A DNA stretch of 59,873 nucleotides, counting the filler, from Candidatus Woesearchaeota archaeon (GTDB lineage Archaea; Nanobdellota; Nanobdellia; Woesearchaeales; ARS49), in assembly GCA_016188265.1 (NCBI GenBank). It is 7 parts of 6 records of this genome, joined end to end, with 100 filler letters (N's around TTAATTAATTAA, not from the genome) between each part and the next. Parts side by side here need not be neighbours in the genome. Positions count along the whole stretch, not along the records: positions 45,290 to 51,504 come from JACPID010000008.1; positions 51,605 to 58,100 come from JACPID010000010.1; 5 more parts are not named here. One strand, 5' to 3'. Positions 51,001 to 54,000 of this stretch are shown here, piece after piece (the first letter of the stretch is position 1; each line of letters opens with the position of its first letter). A program made the position numbers.

Positions 51001-54000
51001 TCCATAAATGCTATTGATTTGTATTGCTCTACAAATATAAGATATCTATTGCTTAATTCGTTTATTTTTAATTTATAAGATTTTATTTTGCCCTTCACTT
51101 TTGATTCTATGATTCCTTTGTTTTCTAAATCTTCAAGAATTAGCTGTGCTGTTCGGGGGCTTATTTTAAGCAATTTTTCAACTTCTCTTATGTAATATTC
51201 TCTATCAAATCCATTTGTAAATAAAGAAATGATTTGTAAGCCATTCTCAGTAATGTTTATTTTATTATACATATGTATTATTTAGAATACAGCTACTATT
51301 TAAATCTTTTTGTTTTCGTTTCGTCACACCATCCCCCGTTCGTCGTTTTTCTTTCTCGTTAAAATTGTCTCCTATCAGTTCGTGCCACTAAAATTTAATT
51401 GCGTATAACTATACATATATGCAAAGTGCTAGATTTTGGGGTTTTAGCCTTTTTTGGGCTTGGATTTTAAAACTCGCATGCGTATTTTCCGTATCTTTTT
51501 TGGANNNNNNNNNNNNNNNNNNNNNNNNNNNNNNNNNNNNNNNNNNNNTTAATTAATTAANNNNNNNNNNNNNNNNNNNNNNNNNNNNNNNNNNNNNNNN
51601 NNNNAAAAAAAATATCGCCTTTATACTTTAGTTTTTTTCGTACTACACTTGGAACTCGTAATTTTTCAGTCATCCAAGAAGGAATTGCTTTTAAAAAACT
51701 TGGCAGTGATTTAGGAAACATTTCCAGATGCTGGCTTAACAAGCGCTCAAATTTAAGCAAAGGCTTTTCATAAAATCCAATATAATCAATTTCTTTGGAA
51801 GTAATTCCAGCACAGTCTAAACAAAATTTTATTGCATTTTCAGGAAAGCCAGTGTCATGTTTTTTTCTTGTAAAACGTTCTTCTTCAGCAGCAGCAATAA
51901 CTTTGCCATCCTTTAGCAAGCAAGCTGCAGAATCATGATAAAAACAAGATATTCCTAAAACATACATTTCTTTTCACCTAGAACAACCTATAATATTCAT
52001 TTTTTTGTTTAGTTGTTGATTGTTCATTTATCCAGTAACTATCTCTGCTTTCTTTATTTATCGCAAGAAATGTTTTTTTAAAAATTCTTTTTGCAATTAA
52101 AGAAGTAAGCCCTATGCTAATAAAATAAACTACAGTTAAAAGAATAATGTTAATTACAGTTTGGACAGCTAAGCTGAACTTTTTAAGCGCTTTATGCAGC
52201 GCTTTTAATCCTCTCATCATAATAATGGAATTAACTGGGTTGATTTTTAAGTTTTTTGCATCTGCAGTTATATTTTATTTAACGTCAACAACAATGATTC
52301 CTTCTTTTTCTTTAACATCTTTAATTTCAGGCAGTTCTTTTAATTTTTTTCTATCTTTGATGGATTTTGCTTTGTCTAAAATTTCTTTAATTTCTTGGTA
52401 TTTTTTATAAATGTATTCTGCTTTTTTCTGATTTTCTTCTATTTCTTGAACAATATTTTTTTCTTGCATTTCCTGAATTTCAATTCTTTTTTGTATTTGC
52501 TCAATTTTCTCATCATATTGGCTTTTTATTTTTTTAACTTTTTTAATTAAAACACTATCTATTGCTTCAGAAAACGTTGGAAATTCTAATTTAGAATAAA
52601 CTTCATATAATTTTAATTTAAATGGAACAATATCAATGACTTCTTCTTTTTCGTTTATTACGCTATTTTCTCTTTCTTTTAATAAATCATTTAAAGAATT
52701 GAAGCAAAGTTCTGCATTTTTTTTATTAACTGCTGCATTTTTGCCTAGATCAGCTCTAATGCACACTTCTTCAGAATAAGCTCCTCCAAGACCAAATTCT
52801 ACAGCCAATGTTTTTGATACATTGTCTTTTGATGAAATAAATTTTGAAATAAATTCTTTTTTATCAAGTTCAAAAACTGATTGTTTTTTTTTCAATATGT
52901 ATTTTTCACCTTGTTCTACAACTCTATCAGCCCATTTTTGCTTTTCTTCCACTTGGATTATTTTTTTTTCAGCATCAGTTAAAATTGTGTTTCCTTTGCT
53001 GAACAATTCTATAATAAGAATGTATTCTTTGTCTTTTTTTGTTAAATTGATTTCAACCACTCTTTCAGAACCGAGTTGTTCTATTTTTTTTATAAAACTC
53101 CCTTCAAGCAATCTTCTTAATGACATTACAAAAGAAGAAGCTTTTTCAGGAGCTTCTGGCTTAGATTCGCTCAACCATAAAAATGGGTGTTCATAACGTA
53201 GAAATCTTTTTCCAACACCTGTTTTGTAAAGTTCTATTATGATTTGTTTTTTGTCAGGATTATAAATTTTGCCAACTCTAGCGCCTGTTATTTTTTGAAA
53301 TTCTTCAATAAGTACATGAAGTTCTATGGATGAAAGTGATGATTTTCTCATTTTTGTAAACGTGCATATAGTTTATGAACCTAGGCCTATTAAAGAAACT
53401 CCTAACATTATAAATAATATGCTTATCCATTTGAGAGTGCTCATTTTTTCTCCTAAAAACTTAATTGAAAGAAGACTAACAAGAACATAACTTAACGACA
53501 CTAAAGGATACAACACAGATAATTCTCCACCTCTTAGTGCCGGGATAAATACTGCTGCAGATGTAACATATAGTGTAATGCCAAATTGCAATTTATGATT
53601 TTTAAGTTGTTTAAATATGTTTCGATTAAGTTTTGAAGCGCCTTTTTTTAATAAAATAGGCCCAAAAGCTCCTATGCATATTCCTAAAAGCACTAATCCA
53701 ACAGACCATAATTGTGTTGTCATAATATTACCTCTGTCTTCTGAGACTGCTGGCTTGCATAGCCCATAGTGCTAATTCCTATCATTATCAGAATAACTCC
53801 TAACCATCTTAGTAATGGTATTTTTTCATTTAAGAAAAGAATTGCAAGAATATTAACCCAAACATAACTGGTGGCAATTATTGGATAAAGTATTGTTACA
53901 TCTCCACCTCTAAGTGCTAGAATAAAAATAATTGCTCCAACTCCATACAAAGCGCATCCTATTATTAATGGTGTATTTGTAAGTAAATTCGGCAATAGCG

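Follow-up and report, generated by a model that had tools for sequence, protein, structure and literature searches.

The archaeal ribosome rescue protein RqcH, a member of the NEMF/Rqc2 family, is named in databases as a single polypeptide. One reading frame in the genome studied here encodes only its first part, which raises the questions of where the remainder is encoded, where the protein is cut and whether the parts still work together. The window, that is, the whole stretch of DNA that was analysed (59,873 nt), consists of joined contig pieces of the genome of a small groundwater archaeon of the order Woesearchaeales. The N-terminal gene (N-half) lies on contig C9 (window positions 51605-58100), and its C-terminal counterpart (C-half) is carried by contig C4, partly inside the window. 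The features, with AlphaFold2 (AF2) models as the source of secondary structure, are the following.

52275..53351 (-): rqcH N-half gene, 358 aa, TAA stop at 52275-52277, AF2 pLDDT 91.5; from N- to C-terminus NFACT-N, HhH, coiled-coil helix 1 and the first M-domain strands
52872..53351 (-): NFACT-N domain, about aa 1-160, from AF2 secondary structure
52677..52862 (-): HhH region, about aa 164-225, AF2 helices 164-172, 178-185, 190-199 and 210-225, inside the NFACT_N match
52362..52520 (-): coiled-coil helix 1 (CC1), aa 278-330, AF2 helices 278-316 and 318-330
52278..52325 (-): M-domain strands at the C-terminus of the N-half, aa 343-358, ending in GIIVVDVK; AF2 strands 343-347 and 352-355
53373..55700 (-): upstream genes on the strand of the N-half, from ORFs and Pfam
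54090-55700 (-): SecD/F-type gene, from ORF and Pfam
53720-54088 and 53373-53723 (-): two EamA-like 4-TM genes, from ORFs and Pfam
C4:79070-79852 (+): rqcH C-half, whole gene, 260 aa, AF2 pLDDT 90.2; strand 2 at aa 1-8, helix CC2 at aa 11-62, NFACT-R at aa 71-185, C-terminal domain at aa 187-260
20999..21295 (+): part of the C-half inside the window, the last 98 codons and the stop; the first 485 nt lie outside the window

Two genes for one RqcH

The N-half matches the Pfam family NFACT_N with residues 9-348 (profile 3-366 of 456, E 2.8e-41), and its PDB matches are the N-domains of NEMF, RqcH and FbpA, with NEMF aligned over residues 2-345. A read-through past the TAA, suggested by a profile match that runs to 383, was rejected as a lysine/glutamate-rich chance extension; the ORF beyond the stop encodes an 80-aa membrane protein without a family match in Pfam. 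Upstream, 21 nt separate the end of the EamA-like gene at 53373-53723 from the start codon of the N-half, and judging by this spacing the N-half is possibly co-transcribed with the SecD/F-type and EamA-like genes. We know of no link between such genes and ribosome quality control.

The genome contains exactly one match to NFACT-R_1 (C4:79292-79618 (+), E 4.9e-36), which belongs to an ORF of 260 aa if translation starts at the ATG and of 274 aa if it starts at a GTG. The encoded protein matches the family at aa 75-183 (E 3.6e-35), and its N-terminus matches positions 359-441 of the NFACT_N profile, i.e. it picks up where the N-half stops. Named single-chain RqcH proteins from methanogens and Bathyarchaeia share 40-52% identity with the C-half in their C-terminal part, with 90-100% of the C-half aligned, and residues 461-647 of human NEMF align with it as well (profile E 6e-45). 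Profile searches of the genome's own contigs found no full-length rqcH elsewhere.

The complementarity of the genes is best seen with NF041120, the 645-position model of the archaeal 'ribosome rescue protein RqcH' (UniProt 'Archaeal Rqc2 homolog aRqcH'). The N-half covers positions 1-376 with 236.2 bits and the C-half positions 381-644 with 314.1 bits, so that only 377-380 are matched by neither. Each half alone fails the cut-off of the model, 400 bits, while the simple sum of the halves is 550 bits and a full-length relative (P0041) scores 534.7 bits. All the domains of the single-chain archaeal protein are present, and in order, in the split pair; the difference is that this genome uses two polypeptides from unlinked genes. 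The ORFs, the Pfam matches and the tiling of the model thus bear out the proposal of the first-pass annotation that these are complementary halves of archaeal RqcH; the genes are an orthologous pair, not a single-chain member of the family. Since each half falls below the cut-off, annotation pipelines miss the name RqcH, and the halves appear as 'NFACT family protein' and 'DUF814 domain-containing protein'; consequently, surveys of ribosome rescue will record RqcH as absent from this large archaeal order.

Regarding their position, the starts of C9 and C4 overlap in reverse orientation by 141 nt with 100% identity. Once the contigs are joined, both halves lie on one strand and about 79.6 kb apart, in agreement with the overlap of 141 bases and the distance of about 80 kb reported before. 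The cysteinyl-tRNA synthetase gene cysS, whose neighbourhood is relevant in other lineages, is located on contig C10 in this genome, unlinked to either half.

The site of the cut and the residues kept

To locate the cut, 10 full-length proteins were aligned with MAFFT together with 12 N-halves and 11 C-halves. In the 12 N-halves the protein ends after strand 1 of the small M-domain beta-hairpin, and in the 11 C-halves strand 2 is the start; the alignment therefore places the cut at the turn of this hairpin, at the tip of the antiparallel coiled coil. It had been proposed that the break falls in the coiled-coil/middle region and leaves one helix to each half; this stands, and the hairpin turn is the more exact location. 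As a consequence of this position, each half keeps one helix of about 52 residues and one strand. In the AF2 models the helices correspond to residues 278-330 of the N-half (CC1) and 11-62 of the C-half (CC2), and the CC-M unit, formed by the two long helices and the M domain, is present in the pair and in neither gene alone. Near the tip, both helices show conserved hydrophobic seams, which in the N-half consist of conserved hydrophobic residues spaced 3-4 positions apart at aa 313-346. In the alignment with Bacillus subtilis RqcH, the C-half begins at residue 360 and the cut maps just before it; in that protein, a 'vestigial M domain ... resembled a hairpin', and its surroundings touch uL11/H44 (bioRxiv 10.1101/2020.09.03.281279).

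Residues known to matter in RqcH appear to be kept on both sides of the cut. Among 48 N-halves, R97 and E115/F117/G120/N121 occupy invariant or near-invariant columns, and in the PDB alignment to 6pon (RqcH) these residues align with the DR and EIM loops of the B. subtilis protein, whose motifs have roles in tRNA binding (bioRxiv 10.1101/2020.09.03.281279). From our reading of these alignments, they would be the equivalents of the DR and EIM motifs. In the C-half, two residues are invariant in 48 sequences, D107 and H111; in the alignment they take the places of D482/H486 in the DWH motif of B. subtilis, a D-x-W-x-H-type motif whose W position is V109 here. B. subtilis RqcH shares with the split pair the domain order, the D and H of DWH and the DR/EIM-type residues; it differs in being bacterial and single-chain, in having RqcP as a partner, and in its low similarity to the halves (E 1e-11 to 1e-12).

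Distribution and descent of the split

In the same family and order we analyzed 216 genomes, counting the N-half as present at a best E <= 1e-15, a threshold that we set ourselves. The N-half was found in 202/216 and NFACT-R, representing the C-half, in 210/216 (200/214 and 208/214 without the unpublished genomes G243 and G244), so the claim that the split is conserved across the order holds in this larger sample. Four genomes lack both halves (G023, G210, G055 and G164) and 12, mostly fragmented assemblies, show one half only, the N-half in 2 and the C-half in 10. All 36 of the best-assembled genomes (<= 10 contigs) contain the N-half and 35 contain the C-half, with frames of 309-449 aa and 259-316 aa, respectively. 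The halves share a contig in 10 of these genomes, 180-585 kb apart, lie on different contigs in 25, and are adjacent in none. Across the whole sample, too, the halves were never neighbours where their positions allowed a judgement. Frames of 449-572 aa at the N-halves of G109, G238, G213 and G013 were considered as fusions and rejected; they are ordinary N-halves, with an open upstream frame in two cases. The halves differ in evolutionary rate, the C-half being markedly better conserved: for the window's proteins, identity to the nearest relatives is at most 41% for the N-half, one 99%-identical sequence aside, and 51-60% among the top matches listed for the C-half.

The first-pass annotation had set the split order against an undivided gene in another order of the class. 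Undivided genes do exist there, and we found 10 full-length class genes; however, the split is not peculiar to the order, given that the same-site split also occurs in 7 families of other orders, Nanoarchaeum equitans among them. In three of these families the genes form an N-half–cysS–C-half operon; this order, in which stops overlap with starts, was seen in four genomes (G245, G278, G141 and G056) and one metagenome locus (L076). Other lineages keep an NFACT-R protein without any N-half, namely f75, f93 (G266) and f81 (G086), which implies that the NFACT-R part can be useful alone. No NFACT_N match was found in the seven f75 genomes or in G266, and the short NFACT-R ORFs extracted for seven of these eight genomes encode 124-204 aa; their match begins at residue 62-75 of the C-half, i.e. 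without strand 2 and CC2.

The split itself is not new, because it was tabulated in 2013 for N. equitans and Nst1. Table 1 of Podar et al. (Biol Direct 8:9, PMC3655853) lists a split "predicted RNA-binding protein" represented by NEQ438 and NEQ506 (printed as 'NEQ 438-506') and by Nst176 and Nst251. NEQ438 matches NF041120 at 2-351 and NEQ506 at 383-644; they belong to the same family as the window's halves and are broken at the same site of the alignment (N about 330-380 aa, C about 250-290 aa). Halves identical to NEQ438/NEQ506 are also found in a genome of another family, unlinked and 62 kb apart. In the parts of that paper available to us, the protein carries an old generic name without a link to RqcH or RQC, the cut is not placed structurally and two genomes are covered, whereas the window's order is a different one, in which genomes are larger (0.6-2.1 Mb). 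Compared with that table, the present analysis adds the structural placement of the cut, the identity as RqcH and the survey over the order. In the openly searchable literature, with subscription papers outside the scope of the search, no description of a split RqcH under its modern name was found; PMC6514570, in the part consulted, mentions Rqc2 and DPANN separately only. Other split genes of DPANN archaea include those for reverse gyrase, tRNA synthetases and Dph1/2 (review PMC6349945). These are likewise fissions of conserved information-processing genes in small-genome archaea; according to the accessible text of that review such splits are late and occur in particularly reduced genomes, in contrast to the rqcH split, which is fixed throughout an entire order and reaches beyond it.

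The fission is probably older than the order, and the N-half–cysS–C-half operon looks like an earlier stage of it. In a tree of the C-region (58 rows, flagged for long branches and odd composition), NEQ506 and the window's C-half do not fall together, and the lineage of the full-length P0041 nests among split forms. A single clade for all 23 split forms was rejected (AU p 0.00058), with long branches in play, and a clade of 21 split forms, without NEQ506 and G248, was not rejected (p 0.135), this group having been picked after viewing the tree. The neighbourhoods of the undivided genes speak neither for nor against a duplicated rqcH-cysS pair as the origin of the fission: no cysS is present up to a distance of 1.5 kb from the 10 full-length class genes, or of 4 kb from L073-L075, the nearest full-length relatives. 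Taken as a graded series, from the single gene through the N-half–cysS–C-half operon, partial linkage to cysS and dispersed halves to a lone trimmed NFACT-R protein, these forms provide a clear record of the spread and decay of a gene fission.

A probable two-chain RqcH and other readings

The reading that we consider quite probable is that of an old, fixed fission of rqcH at the hairpin turn, whose products pair to rebuild RqcH. Its basis is the complementarity of the halves, the exact site of the cut, the helices with their seams, the functional residues kept and the conservation over the order, together with the absence of both halves from four genomes and the lack of CC2 in lineages that have no N-half. 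In addition, a complex prediction of the halves with alignments gave ipSAE values of 0.60, 0.59 and 0.59, with a partner pLDDT of 82, runs that agree in at least 76% of contacts and the verdict 'weak support'. The earlier values and verdict were thus repeated, except that the best of three controls reached 0.12, not the 0.03 given before. The mark for this verdict is reached by 116/157 solved complexes and 2/215 mismatched pairs, and a passing score of 0.60 or under is seen in just 18 of the 157 solved complexes and in both passing mismatches. Given that structures of single-chain RqcH/NEMF are solved, the pass may be a memory of the fold. The halves most likely re-associate into a two-chain RqcH, which is an inference.

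The N-half would contribute the tRNA-binding module (NFACT-N and HhH), coiled-coil helix 1 and hairpin strand 1, and the C-half hairpin strand 2, coiled-coil helix 2, the ribosome-binding NFACT-R and the C-terminal domain. The chains would pair through their helices of about 52 residues and the sheet at the tip, and the resulting protein would occupy a 50S subunit that carries peptidyl-tRNA in the manner of single-chain RqcH, its tip at the uL11 stalk base, NFACT-R at the A-site finger and NFACT-N/HhH at the anticodon stem of the P-tRNA. In B. subtilis, the only contacts of RqcH with the 50S subunit are those of NFACT-R with the A-site finger and of distal CC-M with uL11/H44, while NFACT-N/HhH touch tRNA alone, and the coiled coils part 'scissor-like' during the cycle (bioRxiv 10.1101/2020.09.03.281279). 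Since NFACT-N/HhH have no 50S contact of their own there, the N-half would be expected to arrive at the ribosome only with the help of the C-half. By analogy, a two-chain form without a covalent hairpin might fall apart at the scissor step, which counts against the model; moreover, as the genes are unlinked in the window's order, nothing visible enforces an equal dosage of the halves. The unequal rates of the halves, the 12 genomes with one half and the lineages with NFACT-R alone also weigh against it. If the two-chain reading holds, RqcH can be cut in the M-domain hairpin, in the part of the tip that is in contact with the uL11 stalk base, without loss of the protein; the natural cut can then serve directly as a template for RqcH constructs in two pieces and for probing the covalent hinge in the scissor movement.

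A different possibility is that the halves took separate jobs, the C-half as an autonomous 50S-binding NFACT-R factor, possibly a release factor of the Jlp2/CCDC25 type, and the N-half as a separate tRNA-binding protein or one on its way out. In yeast, the stand-alone NFACT-R protein Jlp2 is reported to free peptides from peptidyl-tRNA by means of a His that is conserved in the cavity of NFACT-R (bioRxiv 10.1101/2025.09.04.673968), and the NFACT-R core of the C-half carries the invariant His111. Jlp2 and human CCDC25 are likewise separately encoded and act on stalled large subunits; the f75, f93 and f81 lineages with a lone NFACT-R protein, the ten order genomes with the C-half alone and its better conservation point in the same direction. 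With regard to a possible equivalence of His111 and Jlp2 His44, the C-half profile had 7 PDB matches at E <= 0.1, and CCDC25 (7EOE) was none of them. Judged from the short f75/f93 proteins, the Jlp2/CCDC25 type lacks the coiled-coil helix; in contrast, the C-half, itself an orthologue of the RqcH C-terminus, retains CC2 and a C-terminal domain of the RqcH type. Its 52-residue CC2, with a conserved hydrophobic seam, and strand 2 have no obvious use without CC1, and are the very parts missing from the short proteins where the N-half was lost. In addition, the N-half is present in 36/36 well-assembled genomes of the order with its tRNA-loop residues kept. We consider separate jobs unlikely. Joining of the halves by a split intein has a precedent in N. 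equitans, where another split gene, that of DNA polymerase, is joined in this way. Here there is no room for intein halves, because the halves tile the RqcH model except for 377-380; each half shows a single confident fold without an extra domain (AF2), Pfam finds the NFACT domains alone and no intein family, and the break is flanked by ordinary hairpin-strand residues in N-halves and C-halves, all of which makes this explanation exceedingly improbable. A mis-assembled or recently broken gene (a pseudogene) could come to mind, as the assembly is in 25 contigs and one of these ends 670 nt from the N-half. In the same study, two other runs yielded contigs that cover 51978-53723 with 3 substitutions and no indel; the stop is not an assembly error, because it is the same in them, as is the gene end. 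About 200 genomes of the order share the architecture, which is seen in complete genomes too, both ORFs are intact with confident folds, and the motif residues are kept, which leaves this explanation a negligible chance.

Returning to the paired halves, their history can be extended into a scenario that, as a whole, we regard as rather doubtful. One fission would have occurred in an ancestor of the order and of several sister orders, via the N-half–cysS–C-half operon, with the C-half as a resident 50S-binding unit and the N-half as a detachable tRNA-recruiting arm; the f75/f93 lineages would then have lost the arm and trimmed the C-half to a Jlp2-like release factor, and the split of N. equitans would be either the same event or a convergent cut at a permissive site.

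The two genes and the site of the break

The archaeal RqcH of this genome (923,817 bp in 25 contigs) is encoded by two genes, one on contig C9, which corresponds to window positions 51605-58100, and the other on contig C4.

52275-53351 (-): rqcH N-half, ORF of 358 aa
Contig C4 (+): rqcH C-half, ORF of 260 aa from an ATG, or 274 aa from an upstream GTG
20999-21295: last 98 codons of the C-half, the only part of it inside the window

Residues 9-348 of the N-half match positions 3-366 of 456 of the Pfam NFACT_N profile (E 2.8e-41), and the first 70 residues of the C-half ORF match positions 359/370-441 of the same profile, the point where the N-half leaves off. 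A Pfam profile search of the genome gave a single NFACT-R_1 match, at C4:79292-79618 (+); the weak NFACT_N matches come from the helix of the C-half itself or from HhH motifs in other proteins. The starts of C9 and C4 overlap by 141 nt in reverse orientation with 100% identity, and once these contigs are joined some 79.6 kb separate the two halves, which are on the same strand. The N-half with its domain, the distant second gene and the contig overlap had all been described in the first-pass annotation and are reproduced here. Since contigs of two further runs of the same groundwater study cover 51978-53723 with three substitutions and no indel, the stop of the N-half after ...GIIVVDVK is not an assembly error.

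The earlier claim that the halves are complementary is borne out by the NCBIfam model for archaeal RqcH (NF041120, 645 positions, cut-off 400 bits), which is tiled by the N-half at 1-376 (236.2 bits) and the C-half at 381-644 (314.1 bits); the full-length relative P0041 covers positions 1-644 with 534.7 bits. The N-half aligns with human NEMF 2-345 and Bacillus subtilis RqcH 16-332, and the C-half with NEMF 461-647 (profile E 6e-45) and, in B. subtilis RqcH, with the part that starts at residue 360. Over 90-100% of its own length, the C-half shares 40-52% identity with the C-terminal region of entries that carry the name 'ribosome rescue protein RqcH', among them those of Methanothermobacter, Methanococcus and Bathyarchaeia.

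The break had been placed in the coiled-coil/middle region, and an alignment with 10 full-length relatives of the same class narrows it to the turn of the beta-hairpin: N-halves finish at strand 1, and C-halves open at strand 2 and run on into the second helix, whose conserved start reads '..K(S/T)(I/V)E.NA..YY..'. The AF2 models, for which 48-row alignments served as input, are confident (pLDDT 91.5 for the N-half, 90.2 for the C-half) and have the layout below, and a conserved hydrophobic seam lies beside the tip in both helices.

N-half: NFACT-N, HhH, helix 278-330, strands 343-347 and 352-355
C-half: unpaired N-terminal stretch, helix 11-62, NFACT-R 71-185, C-terminal domain 187-260

Directly downstream of the N-half is an 80-aa ORF for a predicted membrane protein (51978-52220 (-)), and directly upstream of the C-half a 168-aa protein with a hydrophobic N-terminus (L001:738-1244 (+)), the stop of which overlaps the possible GTG start; neither ORF has a Pfam match. 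A 552-aa frame at C23:3564-3791 (+) gives a weak NFACT_N match (E 7.6e-5) only in the HhH part (profile about 160-240). Such matches recur across the class in longer, unrelated proteins (frames of 525-636 aa in most genomes searched), and this type of match is probably just the common HhH motif.

Distribution and origin of the split

Both Pfam models were searched in 301 genomes of the phylum, all of one class; besides this genome they comprise 23 from its family, 193 from its order and 84 from other orders. An N-half was called present at a best NFACT_N E <= 1e-15, a threshold set in this analysis; weaker matches have the two sources named above for this genome. Conservation of the split across Woesearchaeales, as first proposed, was confirmed: NFACT-R was found in 210 of the 216 family and order genomes and the N-half in 202 (208 and 200 of 214 without the unpublished G243 and G244, each with both halves). 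Both halves were absent from 4 genomes, 2 had only the N-half, and 10, mostly fragmented assemblies, only the C-half. Among the best 150 matches of each survey, the NFACT-R frame never exceeded 351 aa in genomes of the order. When all matches were taken in for the 36 order genomes with at most 10 contigs, the N-half was present in every one (309-449 aa) and the C-half in 35 (259-316 aa), G186 being the one where it was not found. None of these pairs is adjacent; ten share a contig, 180-585 kb apart, and 25 are on different contigs. Four apparently long N frames were all ordinary N-halves.

Of the claim that the gene is split across the order and undivided in a genome of another order, the undivided gene outside the order stands, but the same-site split is not confined to Woesearchaeales. 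Among 31 genomes of other orders taken in detail, the gene is undivided in 10 (8 families; 550-737 aa) and split at the same site in 12 (7 families). Eight genomes, of families f75 and f93, are without an N-half, and seven of these yielded a short NFACT-R protein (124-204 aa) that lacks strand 2 and helix 2. The remaining genome (family f81) has a 240-aa NFACT-R protein and no N-half. The short proteins (f75 loci L025, L026, L028, L030, L033 and L034; f93 locus L029) start at about C-half residue 62-75, without the coiled-coil helix, and the Pfam search found no NFACT_N match in the genomes behind these loci; the short proteins may descend from the C-half and act as an autonomous NFACT-R factor.

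Three families (G245, G278, G141, G056) and a metagenome contig (L076) still have both halves, collinear, in one tight operon around the cysteinyl-tRNA synthetase gene, in the order N-half, cysS, C-half, with overlapping stops and starts and, in some only, a small ORF on either side of cysS.

Loci linking the rqcH halves to cysS
N-half, cysS, C-half: L065:983-4746, L066:986-4557, L067:950-4082, L068:1240-5579, L076:1612-4738
N-half...cysS, partial linkage (family f74): L039, L040, L084
cysS, C-half, partial linkage (G239): L019
cysS, short NFACT-R, partial linkage (G266): L029

No cysS lies near either half in the present genome, nor beside the C-half in any C-half-only metagenome locus with enough flank. 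In G141 the cysS between the halves is interrupted (L068:2383-4668: 240-aa N-part, 270-aa ORF, 251-aa C-part), and the 270-aa ORF matches Phage_endo_I (E 4.5e-8).

In a quick maximum-likelihood tree built from 58 rows of the C region, 21 of the 23 split forms group together (SH-aLRT 94), and this group also takes in a few full-length forms (P0041, P0181, P0184, P0186, P0187 and that of G216). The AU test rejects a single clade of all split forms (p 0.00058, long branches being involved); for the 21 forms without NEQ506 and G248, a group picked after seeing the tree, a single clade is not rejected (p 0.135). From the tree and these tests, therefore, one old fission for the order and its sister families fits the data. 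The relatives P0041-P0044 and loci L073-L075 carry a 597-aa full-length RqcH with a minimal hairpin turn (...TFTMAL-KGS-NLTLNI...). This type nests among the split C-halves, sister to the split form of family f77 (SH-aLRT 92), with no cysS within 4 kb, and its lineage could be a re-fusion or could never have split.

The split per se is already known: the table of Podar et al. 2013 (PMC3655853) prints NEQ438 and NEQ506 of Nanoarchaeum equitans as a split pair. One split genome of another order has proteins identical to these two of strain Kin4-M; by sequence and NF041120 matches they are the N-half and C-half of RqcH, and in the alignment they are cut at the same place as the gene in the window. 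Within the papers accessible to our search, none was found on the split under the name RqcH or NFACT. The points that may be new with respect to the 2013 table are how widespread the split is (about 200 of the 216 genomes in an entire order, some as large as about 2 Mb), where in the structure the cut falls, the N-half, cysS, C-half operon series and the trimmed NFACT-R proteins. A review (PMC6349945) has such splits arising late, in the most reduced genomes; in contrast, the rqcH split is order-wide and found in genomes up to about 2 Mb.

How the halves may work

According to a study of B. subtilis RqcH (bioRxiv 10.1101/2020.09.03.281279), its only two contacts with the 50S subunit are NFACT-R with the A-site finger and the distal CC-M with uL11/H44, NFACT-N/HhH contact only the P-tRNA, the DR and EIM loops contact the anticodon stem of the tRNA, and 50S binding requires the DWH motif. 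In the N-half, R97, E115/F117 and G120/N121 are counterparts of its key residues, as are D107 and H111 in the C-half. A cut at the hairpin turn would leave one half that binds tRNA and another that binds the ribosome, with a coiled-coil helix in each; these would pair non-covalently through the antiparallel coiled coil and the tip sheet, and the heterodimer would act like single-chain RqcH.

Such a heterodimer is the simplest and most likely working model. In its favour, the cut site is exact and conserved, both helices and their seams are kept, helix 2 is gone from the short NFACT-R proteins of lineages without an N-half, an operon stage is still found, and the complex prediction passes its mark. 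In the main rival reading the two halves have come to work separately, the C-half as an autonomous NFACT-R factor. Lineages with NFACT-R alone and the better conservation of the C-half favour it, and stand-alone Jlp2 has been reported as a His-dependent release factor (bioRxiv 10.1101/2025.09.04.673968); however, separate jobs leave the retention of helix 2 in the C-half unexplained. The complex prediction (ipSAE 0.60/0.59/0.59, best control 0.12, partner pLDDT 82, contact agreement at least 76%, verdict 'weak support') agrees with that of the first-pass annotation. Of 157 solved complexes 116 reach the mark, against 2 of 215 mismatches; those that pass with 0.60 or less are only 18 of the solved complexes, yet both of the mismatches. 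Because single-chain RqcH/NEMF structures have been solved, the pass may reflect memory of the fold.

Repeats and contig ends

At least 10 contigs of the genome carry short dispersed repeats (about 50-260 nt, 93-100% identity), several of them at contig ends, and a second repeat family measures about 100 nt. The repeats resemble MITE-type elements at which the assembly is interrupted.

4985-5243 (end of contig C3): short dispersed repeat
C4:54493-54588, C4:56640-56834, C8:18865-19122, C17:20880-21133, C25:3636-3770: further examples
About 31800-31900 (end of C4), and C15, C13, C10, C2, C25 and C8: second repeat family

An overlap of exactly 141 nt with 100% identity is shared by the contig ends of eleven pairs (C9-C4, C1-C15, C2-C19, C2-C20, C3-C25, C5-C11, C8-C13, C11-C12, C13-C22, C17-C23 and C18-C24), with C7-C16 as a twelfth pair, so the 25 contigs could be joined into considerably longer chains.
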